DNA from: a virus
Taxonomy: Duplodnaviria; Heunggongvirae; Uroviricota; Caudoviricetes
Strand: one strand, 5' to 3'
Virus record (IMG/VR): IMGVR_UViG_2861079508_000003
Location: 1-39,249 of that record
DNA: 39,249 bases
The notes beneath the pieces were generated by a model, which saw nothing but the letters and a program-made list of their open reading frames with translations, was not told the origin of the DNA and did no database searches. Position numbers and translations under genes: made by a program. Below, piece by piece: positions 7,230 through 21,341 of the stretch. The stretch's first letter is position 1. Every line of letters begins with the position of its first letter.

Positions 7230-7302
7230 TACAAAATGTTCTAAATGTGGTTGGTTTTTTATAACACTTTGTATTTTATTGATTTATATTTTGGAAAAAG
7301 AA

Positions 7303-7324
7303 AACCCGACGCTAAGGTCGGGTT
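7303..7324 (-). terminator. Rho-independent terminator downstream of the repressor gene
   Basis: 8-bp stem AACCCGAC/GTCGGGTT with 6-nt loop, followed on the minus strand by TCTTTTTCC; about 30 bp past the cI stop. Confidence 0.55.
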
Positions 7325-12170: not shown

Positions 12171-12585
12171 TTTCATTCTGCACGAAACCAATAAATCACA
12201 ATTCTGGTTAGTTCTGAAACAAATCCTCTCTACTGGCAAACGCTGGCGAATCAAAATATCTGAGTACCGTGAGAAGCGTACATTGTCACAAAACAATCTG
12301 CTGTGGATGTGGAATGCAGAAATAGCCGCACAGTTATCTGCTGCTTCTGCTGAAAACTTCACGCCTGAAGAGGTTCATGAGTGGCTGAAAGATATATTTT
12401 GTCCGGCTAAAAGGGTGACGATTTTTAATATTACACGATGCGTTAAATCAACACGTCAGCTTGATATTGGAGATATGCACAAATATCTGACCGATATTGA
12501 CCAGTGGGCGCATCAGAAGGGATTACGACTAACCATTCCTGATAATTGCGAGTACCGGGATCTAAAGGAGAGGCAAGTAGAGTGA
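12160..12585 (+). CDS. ninB: NinB-like recombination protein (141 aa)
   Basis: ..RTLSQNNLLWMWNAEIA.. resembles the NinB/Orf motif (lambda ..RSLDQNRKLWACL..); first gene of the nin region. Confidence 0.7.
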   Translation: MMNDFILHETNKSQFWLVLKQILSTGKRWRIKISEYREKRTLSQNNLLWMWNAEIAAQLSAASAENFTPEEVHEWLKDIFCPAKRVTIFNITRCVKSTRQLDIGDMHKYLTDIDQWAHQKGLRLTIPDNCEYRDLKERQVE

Positions 12586-13109
12586 CTATCAAATCAAATA
12601 CGCCAGCGTCAGATAGGTATCGGCTTATTGAGGATTATCTGTATTTAGACGGAGATACAGTCAGATACAAAAAGGACTCGCTAAAACACCCCAACCACAG
12701 CCACCGGGCAGGAGATGAAATTAAAACATCGATAAATGGATCTGGGTATAGACAGGTGTGTTTTGCAGGCATTCAGATGTTTGTTCACGTAGTTGTTTTT
12801 GCGCTGCACAACAAAAGAATGCCATTGAAAAATATTGACCATATTAACGGAAACAGGCTGGACAATTCCCCAAAAAATCTTAGGGAGGCAGGCCGGATAG
12901 CAAACAGCCGAAATCAGAAAACTAAGTGCAATAGCCGTTCTGGAATAAAAAATGTTTTATGGAACAAGCAAAAAAATAAATGGGCCGTTCAAGTGCGCAC
13001 AGATTTTGGCCGGTTGTATTTTGGGCTCTATGAAGATCTTGAACTTGCTTGTTTGGTTGCCAGTGAGGCTATCAACAAATATCACGGACAATATGCGAAG
13101 GTTGTATGA
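12546..13109 (+). CDS. HNH homing-endonuclease-like protein with AP2-type DNA-binding domain (187 aa; may start at in-frame GTG 12582)
   Basis: ..KNIDHINGNRLDNSPKNLREA.. (HNH_3) followed by ..NKWAVQVRTDFGRLYFGLYEDLELA.. (AP2-like); GTG at 12582 has an AAGGAG RBS and overlaps the ninB stop. Confidence 0.7.
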   Translation: MRVPGSKGEASRVTIKSNTPASDRYRLIEDYLYLDGDTVRYKKDSLKHPNHSHRAGDEIKTSINGSGYRQVCFAGIQMFVHVVVFALHNKRMPLKNIDHINGNRLDNSPKNLREAGRIANSRNQKTKCNSRSGIKNVLWNKQKNKWAVQVRTDFGRLYFGLYEDLELACLVASEAINKYHGQYAKVV

Positions 13110-16240: not shown

Positions 16241-16753
16241 ATGAAAGAAATAAAATTAACGCCAGAAATGGTGCTTTCTGTTGTTGATTACAATCCATCA
16301 TCAGGCGACTTTCACTGGAGATGGAGGCAGGGGAGAGAGAGGACCACTTTGACATGGAACTCTCGTTTTGCTTTCAAGAAATGCTCATCAATAAATTCTG
16401 ATGGGTATTTAATGATTATGATTAATGGTAAAGCATACCCTGCTCACAGACTGGCATGGTTGATTGTTTATGGCACCATGCCCGATGGTTTTATTGATCA
16501 CATCAACAGGGTAAGAACAGATAACCGGATATCAAATCTTCGTCTTGTCACTCATTCCGAAAATATGCAAAACAGGAAAATTCAGAAGAATAATAAATCT
16601 GGATACCGTGGCGTGTCTTGGGATGCTAAGTACGGGAAATGGAGAGCAAGAATTAATGCGTCTGGAAAGTGTATTAACCTTGGATACCATGACACTGCCG
16701 AACTTGCCGCTGCGGCTTTTGAGGCAGCCAGAATGAAATATCATACCGTTTAA
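16241..16753 (+). CDS. HNH homing-endonuclease-like protein with AP2-type domain (170 aa)
   Basis: ..AHRLAWLIVYGTMPDGFIDHINRVRTDNRISNLRLVTHSENMQNR.. (HNH_3) plus ..SGYRGVSWDAKYGKWRARI..GYHDTAELAAAAFEAA.. (AP2-like); inserted in the late-operon leader. Confidence 0.75.
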   Translation: MKEIKLTPEMVLSVVDYNPSSGDFHWRWRQGRERTTLTWNSRFAFKKCSSINSDGYLMIMINGKAYPAHRLAWLIVYGTMPDGFIDHINRVRTDNRISNLRLVTHSENMQNRKIQKNNKSGYRGVSWDAKYGKWRARINASGKCINLGYHDTAELAAAAFEAARMKYHTV

Positions 16754-16807: not shown

Positions 16808-16882
16808 GGGTCAGTCGTATAAAGGTCATTACGGAAGGCTGTTAACCTTCTTATCGTGGTTCGAGTCCACGCTGTCCCGCCA
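16808..16882 (+). tRNA. tRNA-Asn (anticodon GTT), putative
   Basis: Hand-folded cloverleaf: 7-bp acceptor stem (one U-U mismatch), D-arm with GG, anticodon loop CTGTTAA, T-arm CGTGG-TTCGAGT-CCACG, discriminator G and encoded CCA. Confidence 0.5.
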
Positions 16883-16887
16883 AATAT

Positions 16888-16963
16888 GCTGGTTTAGCTC
16901 CAATGGTAGAGCAGTCGCCTTGTAAGCGAATGGGTAGCGGTTCAAGTCCGTTAACCAGCACCA
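16888..16963 (+). tRNA. tRNA-Thr (anticodon TGT), putative
   Basis: Hand-folded cloverleaf: acceptor GCTGGTT/AACCAGC, D-stem GCTC/GAGC, anticodon loop CTTGTAA, T-arm AGCGG-TTCAAGT-CCGTT, discriminator A and encoded CCA; 76 nt. Confidence 0.6.
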
Positions 16964-17050
16964 TAACTGAGCCGTAGCCACTGGCTATCCTGAATTCATC
17001 AGTGATAGTTACGCTGCGGCCTTCTACACATGACCTTCGTGAAAGCGGGT

Positions 17051-17085
17051 GGCAAGAGGTTGCGCTAACAACCTCCTGCCGTTTT
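17051..17085 (+). other. Conserved stem-loop in the late-mRNA leader upstream of S
   Basis: 12-bp stem with one mismatch (GGCAAGAGGTTG...CAACCTCCTGCC) followed by GTTTTGCCC; region 16966-17205 matches what I recall of the lambda sequence preceding S. Confidence 0.4.
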
Positions 17086-17205
17086 GCCCGTGCATATCGG
17101 TCACGAACAAATCTGATTACTAAACACAGTAGCCTGGATTTGTTCTATCAGTAATCGACCTTATTCCTAATTAAATAGAGCAAATCCCCTTATTGGGGGT
17201 AAGAC

Positions 17206-17529
17206 ATGAAGATGCCAGAAAAACATGACCTGTTAGCCGCCATTCTCGCGGCAAAGGAACAAGGCATCGGAGCAATCCTTGCGTTTGCAATGGCGTACCT
17301 TCGCGGCAGATATAATGGCGGTGCGTTTACAAAAACAGTAATCGACGCAACGATGTGCGCCATTATCGCCTGGTTCATTCGTGACCTTCTCGACTTCGCC
17401 GGACTAAGTAGCAATCTCGCTTATATAACGAGCGTGTTCATCGGCTACATCGGTACTGACTCGATTGGTTCGCTTATCAAACGCTTCGCTGCTAAAAAAG
17501 CCGGAGTAGAAGATGGTGGAAATCAATAA
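17206..17529 (+). CDS. S: Holin, lambda S type (107 aa, dual-start Met1/Met3)
   Basis: [62 protein letters not shown].. is essentially identical to recalled lambda S. Confidence 0.95.
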
Positions 17530-17989
17530 TCAACGTAAGGCGTTCCTCGATATGCTGGCGTGGTCAGAGGGAACAGATAACGGACGACAGAAAACCAGAA
17601 ATCATGGTTATGACGTCATTGTAGGCGGAGAGCTATTTACTGATTACTCCGATCACCCTCGCAAACTTGTCACGCTAAACCCAAAACTCAAATCAACAGC
17701 AGCCGGGCGCTACCAGCTTCTTTCCCGTTGGTGGGATTCCTATCGTAAGCAGCTTGGCCTGAAAGACTTCTCTCCGAAAAGCCAGGATGCTGTGGCATTG
17801 CAGCAGATTAAGGAGCGTGGCGCTTTACCGATGATTGATCGCGGTGATATTCGTCAGGCTATCGACCGTTGCAGCAATATCTGGGCTTCACTGCCGGGTG
17901 CTGGTTATGGTCAGTTCGAGCATAAGGCTGACAGCCTGATTGCAAAATTCAAAGAAGCGGGCGGAACGGTCAGAGAGATTGAGGTATGA
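17513..17989 (+). CDS. R: Endolysin, lambda R type (lytic transglycosylase; 158 aa)
   Basis: [75 protein letters not shown].. matches recalled lambda R. Confidence 0.95.
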
Positions 17990-18423
17990 GCAGAGTAACC
18001 GCGATTATCTCCGCTCTGGTTATCTGCATCATCGTCTGCCTGTCATGGGCTGTTAATCATTACCGAGATAACGCCATCGCCTACAAAGAGCAGCGCGATA
18101 AAGCCACAACCATCATCGCTGACATGCAGAAGCGTCAACGTGATGTAGCAGAACTAGACGCCAGATACACAAAGGAGCTTGCTGATGCTAACGCGACTAT
18201 CGAAAGTCTCCGTGCTGATGTTTCTGCTGGGCGTAAGCGCCTGCAAGTCGCCGCCACCTGTGCAAAGTCAACGACCGGAGCCAGCAGCATGGGCGATGGA
18301 GAAAGTCCAAGACTTACAGCAGATGCTGAACTCAATTATTACCGTCTCCGAAGTGGAATCGACAGGATAACCGCGCAGGTTAACTACCTGCAGGAATACA
18401 TAAGGACGCAATGCCTTCGATGA
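17986..18423 (+). CDS. Rz: Spanin inner-membrane subunit Rz (145 aa)
   Basis: N-terminus [31 protein letters not shown].. matches lambda Rz; coiled-coil remainder; follows R. Confidence 0.85.
18185..18370 (+). CDS. Rz1: Spanin outer-membrane lipoprotein subunit Rz1 (embedded in Rz, +1 frame; 61 aa from ATG)
   Basis: Embedded ORF with lipobox (..LLGVSAC..), Pro-rich segment and AAGGAG RBS 7 nt upstream of the ATG; classic Rz/Rz1 arrangement. Confidence 0.75.
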
Positions 18424-18563
18424 TAGCGATAATTTTACTCATCATCCTTCACATCTGGCTCTGTAGACAGGGTGGTGATCACTTCTGGAGTGAATCCAGA
18501 TTAAACATCTCATTGCTGATGCTTGAAGTTGAGCATCTGGCGCGCGGTAAGGGGCTGCGTTGA
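18420..18563 (+). CDS. Possible small hydrophobic protein (47 aa), not in ORF track
   Basis: ATG overlaps the Rz stop (ATGA); N-terminus [15 protein letters not shown].. is hydrophobic. Only coupling and hydrophobicity support it. Confidence 0.25.
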
Positions 18564-18928
18564 GATAAGAGCCAGTTCATTACAAAGCCTATCTACGGGT
18601 GGGCTTGATAATGAAACCGTGATTTACATCCCCACAATCCGGGTATGTAAAAGATAGTTCAGGCGAGAACAGATTTAACTAAATCTGTGCACCACCAGTT
18701 ACGGCAGTACCGCGAAACAACCCAAGCCAGTAAGTGGGGAAATAACACTGGCAGCCACTGAAAGATGAACCTCCTGCCTTATGGCAAAAAAGATTCTTTG
18801 TGGTGGCGGACTGATGGAAAAACATCGGTTATTGCAGAGACCATTCAGTGAGTGGTCTCGACAATGGCTTATACCCTACACGGGATAACTTAACTGATAT
18901 CCCTTTTAACGGATAAACGGAGCCAACA

Positions 18929-19171
18929 ATGGCAGAGATTATTCCCATGACTGAAGAACAGAAATTCCAGTTAGAGATTTACAAACTGGTCATGAACCAG
19001 AACGCAGCCGCAGAAGAAGCATTTCAATTCATTGGCACTGACGAACTGAAGCTTGAGCTATTCAAAATTCACTTCCAGTCAGGCGGCGCTAATTCAGATA
19101 TCACGATCCGCACATTTGAAGCGGTGCGTAAATCGAAGGAAGCGTTAGACCTGTTCACCACCGGAGCATGA
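18929..19171 (+). CDS. Hypothetical protein (80 aa)
   Basis: ORF with RBS (ACGGAG) between lysis and packaging genes, in late-operon orientation. Confidence 0.45.
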   Translation: MAEIIPMTEEQKFQLEIYKLVMNQNAAAEEAFQFIGTDELKLELFKIHFQSGGANSDITIRTFEAVRKSKEALDLFTTGA

Positions 19172-19369: not shown

Positions 19370-19864
19370 ATGAATATGGCGGCACCAAAGGGCAACCGAT
19401 TTTGGGAGGCCCGCAGTAGTCATGGGCGAAACCCGAAATTCGAATCGCCTGAGGCGCTGTGGGCTGCTTGTTGTGAATACTTCGAGTGGGTAGAAGCTAA
19501 CCCGCTATGGGAGATGAAGGCGTTCTCGTATCAGGGTGAAGTGATACAAGAGCCTATCGCCAAGATGCGAGCGATGACTATTACCGGACTCACTCTGTTC
19601 ATTGATGTGACGCTTGAAACATGGCGCACATATCGCCTGCGAGAAGATTTATCTGAAGTCGTTACGCGAGCAGAGCAGGTCATCTACGACCAGAAATTCT
19701 CTGGCGCAGCCGCTGACCTTCTCAACGCTAACATCATCGCCCGTGATTTGGGCCTCAAAGAGCAGTCGCAAGTTGAAGACGTGACACCTGATAAGGGAGA
19801 TCGCGATAAGCGGCGCTCTCGTATCAAGGAGCTATTCAACCGTGGAACTGGACGCGATTCTTGA
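19370..19864 (+). CDS. Terminase small subunit (P22 gp3 position; 164 aa)
   Basis: Immediately precedes and overlaps the large terminase gene; size and synteny as for P22 gene 3. Family assignment by position and size. Confidence 0.65.
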
Positions 19865-21341
19865 TAACCTGAGCGACGAAGAGCAAATCGAGTTGCTCGA
19901 GCTACTCGAAGAAGAAGAGAACTACCGGAACACACACCTGCTATATGAATTTACGCCATACAGCAAACAGCGTGAGTTCATCGACGCCGGGCATGACTAT
20001 CCAGAACGCTGTTTTATGGCTGGTAACCAGCTTGGTAAGTCATTTACCGGTGCTGCCGAAGTCGCGTTTCACCTTACAGGGCGTTATCCGGGCACAAAAG
20101 GCTATCCTGCTGATGGTAAATATGGCGGTGAGTGGAAAGGTAAGCGTTTCTATGAGCCTGTTGTCTTCTGGATTGGCGGCGAGACAAACGAGACGGTAAC
20201 CAAAACGACTCAACGCATCCTGTGCGGTCGTATCGAAGAGAATGACGAGCCAGGCTACGGTTCCATACCGAAAGAAGACATCATTAGCTGGAAGAAGTCT
20301 CCTTTCTTTCCGAACCTTGTTGATCATCTTCTGGTTAAGCATCACACGGCTGATGGCGTTGAAGATGGCATTTCAATCTGCTACTTCAAACCATACTCGC
20401 AAGGCCGCGCTCGCTGGCAGGGTGACACAATCCACGGCGTGTGGTTTGACGAAGAGCCACCATACAGCATTTATGGTGAAGGCCTTACCCGTACCAACAA
20501 ATACGGGCAATTCTCAATTCTGACGTTTACCCCGCTGATGGGGATGTCTGACGTTGTTACCAAGTTCCTGAAGAATCCCAGCAAGTCGCAGAAAGTCGTC
20601 AACATGACCATCTATGACGCCGAGCACTACACAGACGAGCAGAAAGAGCAAATCATCGCATCCTATCCTGAGCATGAGAGAGAGGCGCGTGCTCGCGGTA
20701 TTCCTACGATGGGTAGCGGGCGAATCTTCCAGATACCGGAAGAGACGATTAAGTGTCAGCCGTTCGAGTGTCCTGATCACTTCTACGTAATTGGCGGGAT
20801 GGATTTCGGATGGGATCACCCGCAGGCGCAGGTTCAGCTTTGGTGGGATAAGGACGCAGACACAATCTACGTTTCACGCGTGTGGAAGGCGAAAGAAAAA
20901 ACAGCCGTTCAGGCATGGGGAGCTGTTAAATCATGGGCGCATAAAGTGCCAACAGCATGGCCTCATGACGGAAACCAGCATGAGAAGGGCGGCGGTGAGC
21001 AGCTCAAAGGGCAGTATGCAGACGCTGGTTTTATGATGTTGCAGGAGCATGCGACATGGCCTGATGGCGGTAATGCCGTGGAGCCTGGCATCACTGAATT
21101 GCGCGACATGATGCTCGATGGTCGCTTCAAAGTATTCAACACCTGTGAGCCATTCTTTGAGGAGTTCCGCCTCTATCACCGTGATGAAAACGGGAAGATC
21201 GTCAAGCTTAACGACGACGTGCTATCAGCCGTTCGCTATGCATACATGATGCGCCGCTTCGCCAAAATGATGCGCGACATCAAAAAACCAAAAGAGAAAA
21301 AGATACCAGCCCCAATCAGGCCCATCGCACGGAGAACTTAA
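19842..21341 (+). CDS. Terminase large subunit (P22 gp2 type; 499 aa)
   Basis: Same length as P22 gp2; contains an ATPase-like segment (..[14 protein letters not shown]..) and a nuclease domain; followed by portal. Confidence 0.85.

Follow-up and report, generated by a model that had tools for sequence, protein, structure and literature searches.

An array of RNA structures at the lysis/packaging gene junction of a P22-like phage, and its probable kinship to the Proteo-phage-1 RNA family

Between the lysis and packaging genes of the virus genome considered here (IMG/VR record IMGVR_UViG_2861079508_000003, the whole 39,249 nts of which are called the window) is a stretch, 18564–18928, that the original prediction had picked out because it lacked any open reading frame (ORF) of at least 60 codons. 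The gap is real on both strands. It is not spacer, but a modular array of RNA structures on the late-operon (+) strand: two copies of a boundary hairpin, an optional two-hairpin insert and a conserved core. Taken together these are, with high probability, a conserved structured RNA module related to Proteo-phage-1 (Rfam RF03044), an orphan motif that came from comparative genomics. Its parts are as follows.

18578–18613, + strand: left boundary hairpin (hp-L), with lower stem CAUUA/UAAUG, a 2×2 CA/GA internal loop and a 9-bp upper stem AAGCCUAUC/GGUGGGCUU
18623–18651, + strand: hairpin C1 (UUUACAUCCCC/GGGUAUGUAAA), part of the optional block C
18669–18688, + strand: hairpin C2, inside block C, with a 9-bp stem and 2-nt loop; the palindrome of the original prediction
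18718–18829, + strand: conserved core RNA, about 110 nts
18721–18752, in the core: pseudoknot region, CCC...AAGCCAGUAAGUGGGG...AACACUGGC
18754–18807, in the core: long hairpin P3, GCCACUG.../...UGGUGGC
between P3 and P4, in the core: linker GGCGGAC
18811–18828, in the core: hairpin P4, CUGAUG-GAAAAA-CAUCGG
18830–18866, + strand: right boundary hairpin (hp-R), AUUG-CA-GAGACCAUUC...GAGUGGUCUC-GA-CAAU

The predicted folding energy of the + strand RNA of 18570–18925 is −125 kcal/mol. Dinucleotide shuffles give −87 ± 4.9, so that z is −7.66, and none of 100 shuffles is as good. The value for the minus strand is z = −4.52. In a sliding scan z reaches −4 to −5.5 inside 18475–18924 and is near 0 in the flanking coding DNA, the only other strong structure being a separate patch at 16975–17199. 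Across relatives the predicted helices contain 70 G.U cells and 19 A.C cells, and as G.U is a valid pair on the + strand only, this favours a + strand RNA.

The boundary hairpins are direct copies of a single motif of about 37 nts, YAUYRCA, a 7–10-bp stem and loop, then GAYAAYG. Its shape is a 5–6-bp lower stem, the 2×2 CA/GA internal loop, which is kept, and a 9–10-bp upper stem. A covariance model of the motif (R1) finds exactly two matches in the window, both on the + strand: hp-L at 56.4 bits (E = 3e-13; the minus strand gives 10.6 bits) and hp-R at 49.9 bits (E = 2e-11). It finds no further copy there. Enterobacterial relatives have one or two copies each. In an alignment (A1) of 14 variants from relatives 96.9% of the cells are paired, a figure inflated by the filter of at least five stem pairs with which the variants were gathered; 9 of the 14 pairs are changed on both sides, none of 500 shuffles pairs as well, and slid controls reach 51% at most. 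Within-type changes in the upper stem of hp-R comprise 10 that are double-sided, 19 that are one-sided and still paired, and 4 that are unpaired. Among 68 relatives hp-L is present in 49 and hp-R in 67. Conservation of the sequence of the lower stem and CA/GA loop suggests a specific partner. The motif has no Rfam match and was not found in the literature searched.

Most copies in relatives are positioned after an upstream gene. The start of hp-L is 15 nts past the stop codon of the preceding ORF, and in five annotated cases (Rha, hkbL, HK106 gene 064, Sf6 gene 65 and Sf6 gene 66) the hairpin begins 2–35 nts past the upstream stop. Both hairpins of the window are followed by non-U sequence, so they are not intrinsic terminators of the usual kind, a G+C-rich hairpin followed by a U tract. 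An intrinsic-terminator scan of the + strand of 18564–18928 gave no terminator-like site. (On the minus strand a weak terminator-like site, 18791–18770, was not adopted, having a poor tail and a stem that depends on G-T pairs. It overlaps the region in which phage L annotates a minus-strand terminator.)

The core is where constraint is strongest. Diversity was measured in 95 loci, 87 of them ascertained via the downstream DUF2560/hkbM-like gene and not via the region itself, plus eight annotated phage loci. Per-site diversity is 0.074 at third codon positions of hkbM, 0.065–0.083 in the blocks of 18587–18724 and a neutral-like 0.073 in 18851–18928. It falls to 0.0165 in 18725–18756 and 0.013 in 18757–18826, about 5-fold below both the neighbouring synonymous sites and the adjacent non-coding blocks. 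Judged by this diversity, the core is under purifying selection. It is present in 62 of the 68 relatives. The core also folds better than expected (z = −3.4). When window-type cores are aligned with those of a divergent type (L140), 97.1% of the cells are paired; P3 is 100% paired with 5 double-sided changes between the types, and P4 has 2.

Several points weigh against this account, in addition to the inflated pairing figure of the hairpins. The low diversity of the core could partly derive from a recent spread of the block and not from selection. The module is dispensable in some phages, the core being absent from 6 of the 68 relatives and the left hairpin from 19. Core covariation comes essentially from one divergent lineage, L140/L340. 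Within the window type, changed cells are still paired once and unpaired six times in GCCAGU/ACUGGC, likewise once and six times at the top of P3, and never against three times in CCC/GGG; the last is intact in most sequences, though all three of its changed cells are unpaired and several haplotypes have CCA or CAC. Since the rare within-type polymorphisms mostly break its pairs, the structure of the pseudoknot region rests on the comparison between types. Also, at 15–18 bp the boundary hairpins are short for classical substrates of RNase III, which bears on the function considered below.

A small observation concerns the core itself. ACCUCCU at 18768–18774, displayed in the internal loop of P3 and also present in L140, is identical to the anti-Shine-Dalgarno end of 16S rRNA. 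The idea that it is a strictly conserved mimic of that sequence is weakened by five different substitutions among haplotypes.

An Rfam scan had been proposed in the original prediction. At curated thresholds its only matches in the window are two tRNAs, neither in the region, and the one lead below threshold is Proteo-phage-1. The family model matches 18693–18756 in part, at 17.5 bits (E = 1.6), short of the gathering score of 42 and of the 79.3 bits reached by the canonical element L076. The core and the family have the conserved blocks AAGCCnGnnAGUG and AACACnGGCAGCC in common. For the family loop AAGCCGGnnAGUG and 3′ tail AACaCCGGCAGCC the window carries AAGCCAGTAAGTG...AACACTGGCAGCC (18724–18756). 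There are two mismatches and they are mutually complementary, GCCGG/CCGGC in the family being GCCAG/CUGGC in the window. No match to the two-block pattern occurs in 100 window shuffles. In the reciprocal direction a model (R2) built solely from window-type and L140-type cores has a single match in the window (18718–18826, 136 bits) and aligns end to end with 32 canonical elements, the best at 29.7 bits (E = 3e-4 in 0.77 Mb). The alignments of its two best matches cover the conserved Proteo-phage-1 blocks, and there the 3′ part is common as well. The pattern match and the reciprocal search support homology of the core with Proteo-phage-1, and the end-to-end alignments point to the window core being a miniaturised relative of the full canonical RNA.

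That RNA extends well beyond the 82-nt Rfam model. Beyond the model, both it and the window core have GGCGGAC followed by a hairpin with a GGAAAGAC loop, and in both a hairpin domain opens at the final GCC and closes with GGC. (In more distant types, too, the final GCC of GGCAGCC opens a GGC-closed hairpin in most of the motif-bearing sequences.) Both are encoded on the strand of the late genes, ahead of the terminase genes, in phages of the lambdoid type. The core is accordingly described here as a new variant, reduced in size, of an RNA family that is known yet still a functional orphan; its score is below the Rfam threshold. A literature search found no paper naming “Proteo-phage-1”.

The differences are considerable. 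Stem P1 of the family is absent: the cmscan alignment has non-pairing positions across P1 and P2, with the interior of P1 collapsed to 5 nts, and the nearest hairpin upstream of the core, hp-L, is about 100 nts away and a different motif from the Rfam P1. Of the 5-bp P2, which in the family encloses the conserved loop, only a candidate CCC/GGG pairing (18721–23 with 18737–39) is available, and the P3 domain, about 110 nts in the family, is 54 nts in the window. The core follows the lysis genes, whereas canonical elements are directly after a gene in the Q position. The canonical order is NinG, a 223-amino-acid gene in the Q position (phrog_3412; no Pfam match), the RNA, an Rz-like gene, then the small and large terminase genes; in the window it is Rz, the RNA, DUF2560 and the two terminase genes. 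The flanks differ also. Canonical elements, whose two stems have obvious compensatory changes, are units of about 235 nts bracketed by intrinsic terminators, where the core is flanked by hairpins lacking U tracts, and a search of canonical loci with R1 found no boundary hairpin. At L076 3003–3040 (minus strand) and in other canonical flanks there is an intrinsic terminator about 13–20 nts upstream and another at the end, and the segment between the first terminator and the canonical motif, TTTTATGCCTCGAATTTACC, is itself conserved.

An intermediate form exists. L140/L340, just upstream of the small terminase gene, have both boundary hairpins and a short core, and their P3 and P4 stems differ from the window in sequence yet remain complementary. 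Pseudomonas phage phiAH14a (L341) has a canonical element between p54 and p56. (Its p55, L341 4771–5301 on the minus strand, covers the canonical RNA and is probably a spurious ORF; in many IMG/VR relatives, too, the Proteo-phage-1 motif is covered by a long ORF of this kind on the minus strand.) Matches to the short-form motif in L152, L238, L334 and L337–L339 are in heterogeneous contexts and some may be false positives. In L339, at about 7250–7304, the motif is immediately preceded by what resembles the 3′ end of a tRNA (GGTTCGAATCCAGCCGCCA), and this suggests a position adjoining an attachment site.

What might the module do? The suggestion first put forward for the gap, that it holds a small RNA or a regulatory site, has gained from the conserved, strand-specific, non-coding RNA structures; for a stand-alone small RNA, a promoter scan of the region found no promoter-like site. 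The favoured reading, suggested by the anatomy of the module and held tentatively, is that it would be cis-acting punctuation of the late transcript for processing or stability. At the lysis/packaging gene junction the RNA elements would have their effect in cis, within the antiterminated late transcript, and an independent promoter would be unneeded. The boundary hairpins would be intercistronic punctuation, as endonuclease sites, 3′-end protectors or both, and would give the upstream cassette and lysis genes an RNA fate different from that of the packaging and head genes that follow. Between the hairpins the core would serve as a recognition element, either for a protein or for the RNA itself. 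Incidentally, the boundary hairpins would also be the only shared homology for cassette swapping.

RNase III sites of phage T7 (the R1.1 type) and stem-loops like the repetitive extragenic palindromic (REP) elements are intercistronic processing or stabilising hairpins. The hairpins of the window resemble them in being within a long polycistronic phage transcript just past stop codons, and in having an internal loop between upper and lower stem and no U tract. They differ in that their stems total 15–18 bp, in that the lower stem and CA/GA loop are conserved in sequence, in their confinement to one genome interval, and in being recognised here by predicted shape.

An alternative considered rather unlikely, more so than cis-acting punctuation, is that the pieces are a mosaic scar or linker at the DNA level, persisting as shared homology for cassette exchange, with RNA structure incidental. 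The region is common among phages, and mosaic. More than 200 phage records carry the region at 90–99% identity, including P22, Sf6, HK620, CUS-3, epsilon34, ST64T/L, the cos siphoviruses HK97, HK022 and HK106, and some Shiga toxin (Stx) phages. Comparison of the window with the eight annotated phages and with 80 loci collected via hkbM (homologues of DUF2560 in species genomes gave 7 loci only, too few to use) revealed recurrent breakpoints at 18416/24, 18577–86, 18613–26, 18684–18701, 18826–31 and 18849–54. They cluster at the edges and loop of the hairpins (18577/8, 18613–26, 18826–31 and 18849–54), and those exactly at hairpin edges are what a linker should have. Uninterrupted modules come in discrete length classes of 359–361, 301–303, 268–269 and 105–106 nts; the window has the longest form, L263 is identical to it in architecture, HK97 has the full compact form and P22 no more than the core and right hairpin, and the 105–106-nt forms look like recombinants between two hairpin copies. 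The lack of the core or left hairpin in some relatives, and the neutral-like diversity of the non-hairpin blocks B, C, D1 and E, are also in keeping with a linker. A linker does not account for the strand asymmetry, visible both in the excess of G.U over A.C cells and in the R1 scores of 56 bits on the + strand and 10.6 on the other, or for compensatory stem changes alongside conserved loop and internal-loop sequence. Nor does it account for a core 5-fold less diverse than its immediate non-coding neighbours, or for the kinship of that core with a family whose covariation is clear in distant phages of the Pseudomonas type. The same distinction applies to the lambdoid “boundary sequences” and moron hotspots of HK620 and Sf6 (the Sf6 record annotates 'bsq7; boundary sequence' inside Rz), which are likewise short conserved sequences at module joints where accessory genes are swapped. 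The element of the window, in contrast, is a strand-specific hairpin with compensatory stem changes, which goes beyond sharing of linear sequence.

As a whole the interval is an insertion hotspot for accessory genes. At the breakpoints are Rha in APC_JM3.2 and P22, the KilA-like hkbK and hkbL in HK620, gene 66 in Sf6, a GIY-YIG nuclease in epsilon34 and g341c, orf118, orf129 and dec (the ST64T/L dec cluster) in phage L, and anti-CRISPR genes in Huey. The pid locus of P22 (PMC8835761) is there too; the papers on pid describe this neighbouring locus and not the RNA module. Although P22, HK97, Sf6 and HK620 are among the best-studied phages, nearly all records leave the interval blank or fill it with dubious small ORFs, and in carrier records the region is almost always annotated without a gene. 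If the reading as RNA is right, a selected, structured RNA with orphan Rfam kin has a defined operon place in phages with ready genetics, and these classic model phages make the module directly testable. Each cassette would carry the same 3′ hairpin, serving as RNA punctuation and as recombination homology, and the boundary hairpin could explain the build-up of accessory and anti-defence genes in the interval. Several annotations, among them phiAH14a p55 and the ST64T/L orf118 start, would then look wrong.

That the module is a packaging-related site, another early suggestion, is unlikely. It is present alike in headful (P22, Sf6) and cos (HK97, HK022, HK106) phages. The 22-bp P22 pac sequence has an exact copy in the window at 19643–19664, within the small-terminase gene (gene 3). 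The occurrence in pac and cos phages and the position of the 22-mer speak against a packaging site here. The original prediction had itself placed pac in that gene, and the 22-mer agrees; from its exact match the phage of the window should package by the P22 headful mechanism.

Could the core work away from the transcript in which it is made? Release from the late transcript, or separate transcription, would make the core a stable small RNA that acts in trans, targeting host or phage mRNAs or sequestering a protein; this is judged quite unlikely. Rfam does class Proteo-phage-1 as an sRNA gene, canonical copies are the discrete units between intrinsic terminators described above, and the hairpins of the window occupy the positions of those terminators. 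Further, GGA-containing loops (GGCGGAC and GGAAAGAC) are conserved. Against this, as well as the missing promoter, no target complementarity was seen, though no systematic search for it was made. RNA-seq of a BTP1 lysogen has non-coding RNAs elsewhere in the prophage and none within about 2.7 kb of the pid locus (PMC7067206 supplement), which in P22 is immediately 3′ of the core. This absence is weak evidence, the location of the core copy in BTP1 itself being unmapped.

A more specific possibility, inspired by sequence likeness, is that the core is a P1-less, twister-like self-cleaving ribozyme in type-P5 circular-permutation order. It is a long shot. The late transcript would be cut at about U18743/A18744, between the lysis and packaging genes. 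Extended to the family, the proposal would make the orphan Proteo-phage-1 as well as the core a P1-less circularly permuted twister-like ribozyme that cuts the late transcripts of P22-, HK97- and Sf6-type phages, with the boundary hairpins capping the ends; this wider form is also held to be improbable. In common with the rice twister (bioRxiv 10.1101/2020.06.20.162982) the window has CCCAAGCC and UAACACUG, and AAGUGG besides; the two identical 8-mers fall in parts that form the conserved loops of twister. Sequence corresponding to twister's conserved loop nucleotides (L4 CCCAAGC; L1 N-A-A) can be read in the window, as can P2-like and T2-like pairings in circularly permuted order, and CAC/GUG, CCC/GGG and the AA after the putative cleavage site are arranged as in such a permutation. 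P1 would be replaced by a GAAA linker. Twister P1 is dispensable in vitro (PMC5408937), and the neighbourhoods of phage genes are enriched in twister and hammerhead ribozymes of bacteria (PMC10085705). The common CUGGC-to-CCGGC polymorphism, disruptive in a simple hairpin model, would be neutral in this one. However, neither the window region nor a canonical element has an Rfam match at E ≤10 to twister, twister-sister, pistol, hatchet, hammerhead or any other family of self-cleaving ribozymes. In canonical elements the P4 pairing is not kept (by eye) and the general-base G is absent, AGUG passing directly into a stem. The simplest fold has a different topology, stacking the T1 and P4 equivalents as one continuous helix on P2. 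Moreover a 2023 paper sought further twister permutations and had no promising candidates (PMC10085705).

That the constraint reflects small proteins encoded in the core region is very improbable. Three candidates were considered.

18781–18888, + strand: 35-codon ORF with the same start as ST64T/L orf118
18765–18851, + strand: 28-codon ORF
18758–18699, minus strand: 19-codon ORF with GTG at 18758 and a perfect AGGAGG Shine-Dalgarno sequence at 18775–18770

The ORFs do exist, phage L annotates orf118 from the same ATG, and the window and L140 share minus-strand MAA(S/G)VISPLTG with three synonymous differences. No candidate frame, though, has an excess of third-position diversity. Conservation ends at 18826, inside the 35-codon ORF, where mosaic joints occur, and ATG 18781, which falls within P3's apical hairpin, lacks a Shine-Dalgarno sequence. 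In L152 and L338 the minus-strand frame is interrupted by a stop and lacks a start codon. Codon-position diversity, together with start codons missing from relatives, led to the rejection of small ORFs on either strand. The annotated start of orf118, equivalent to ATG 18781, is probably a mis-annotation. In phage L (L008 1647–2003) orf118 runs through the right boundary hairpin (L008 1696–1732).

The palindrome that had first drawn attention to the gap is real and slightly longer than reported, 9+9 nts (ACAGATTTA-AC-TAAATCTGT), but it is not the key feature. It is in block C (about 18627–18692), an optional insert of 57–66 nts with two hairpins, lying between hp-L and the core. Of the 68 relatives 13 (about 19%) have block C, as do 307 of 5,426 complete genomes of E. 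coli, and it is missing from the 301–303-nt and shorter module forms. Nor is such a palindrome statistically unusual: the window has 10 perfect palindromes with 8-nt arms and a spacer of 10 nts at most, against a shuffle mean of 7.25 and maximum of 13, and three perfect ones with 9-nt arms. In relatives three of four changed cells of its stem are still paired, and the two changes legible in the alignment stay paired via G.U, on the + strand only. Being optional and ordinary by chance, the palindrome was dropped as the functional centre and is an accessory hairpin.

Just 3′ of block C, the minus strand of 18693–18709, ACTGCCGTAACTGGTGG, is a poorly conserved segment. It resembles the type I-F CRISPR repeat hairpin of E. 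coli, a likeness that may be chance given the poor conservation. The corresponding slot has annotated anti-CRISPR genes in phages Huey and Louie.

The genome of the window is P22-like (Lederbergvirus-type). The genes and other features around the module are these.

16808–16879 and 16888–16960: two tRNA genes
17206–17529: holin gene S
17513–17989: endolysin gene R
17986–18423: Rz
18411–18563, + strand: gene-65-like small ORF (50 codons from ATG 18411, 47 from ATG 18420)
18869–18887 / 18898–18916, + strand: imperfect inverted repeat just 5′ of the hkbM Shine-Dalgarno sequence
18919–18922, + strand: GGAG, Shine-Dalgarno sequence of the DUF2560/hkbM-like gene
18929–19171: DUF2560/hkbM-like gene (ATG 18929), the next gene after the ORF-free stretch
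between DUF2560/hkbM and the small terminase gene: 59-codon ORF
19370–19864: small terminase gene, gp3
19842–21341: large terminase gene

The longest ORFs within 18564–18928 have 48 and 39 codons (minus strand) and 35 and 28 codons (+ strand); one of 44 codons on the + strand straddles the left edge. The gene-65-like ORF is the last upstream of the RNA module, and its ATG 18420 overlaps the Rz stop codon as ATGA. Counterparts are annotated as Sf6 gene 65 and as a hypothetical protein in APC_JM3.2; a Pfam search with it gave no match. Its diversity by codon position, 0.038/0.014/0.025, is not the usual coding pattern, and 18411–18563 may be partly RNA structure, instead of or besides a gene. 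An 8-nt perfect long-range complement, 18455–62 with 18568–75, has its first arm inside this ORF.

The second strongly structured patch, 16975–17199 (z about −5 on both strands), is between the tRNA genes and the holin gene, and phage L annotates a terminator at the equivalent place. By eye, the ORFs at 12546–13109 and 16241–16753 are like homing-endonuclease genes of the HNH plus AP2 type; one of them is placed between the Q-like gene and the tRNAs.

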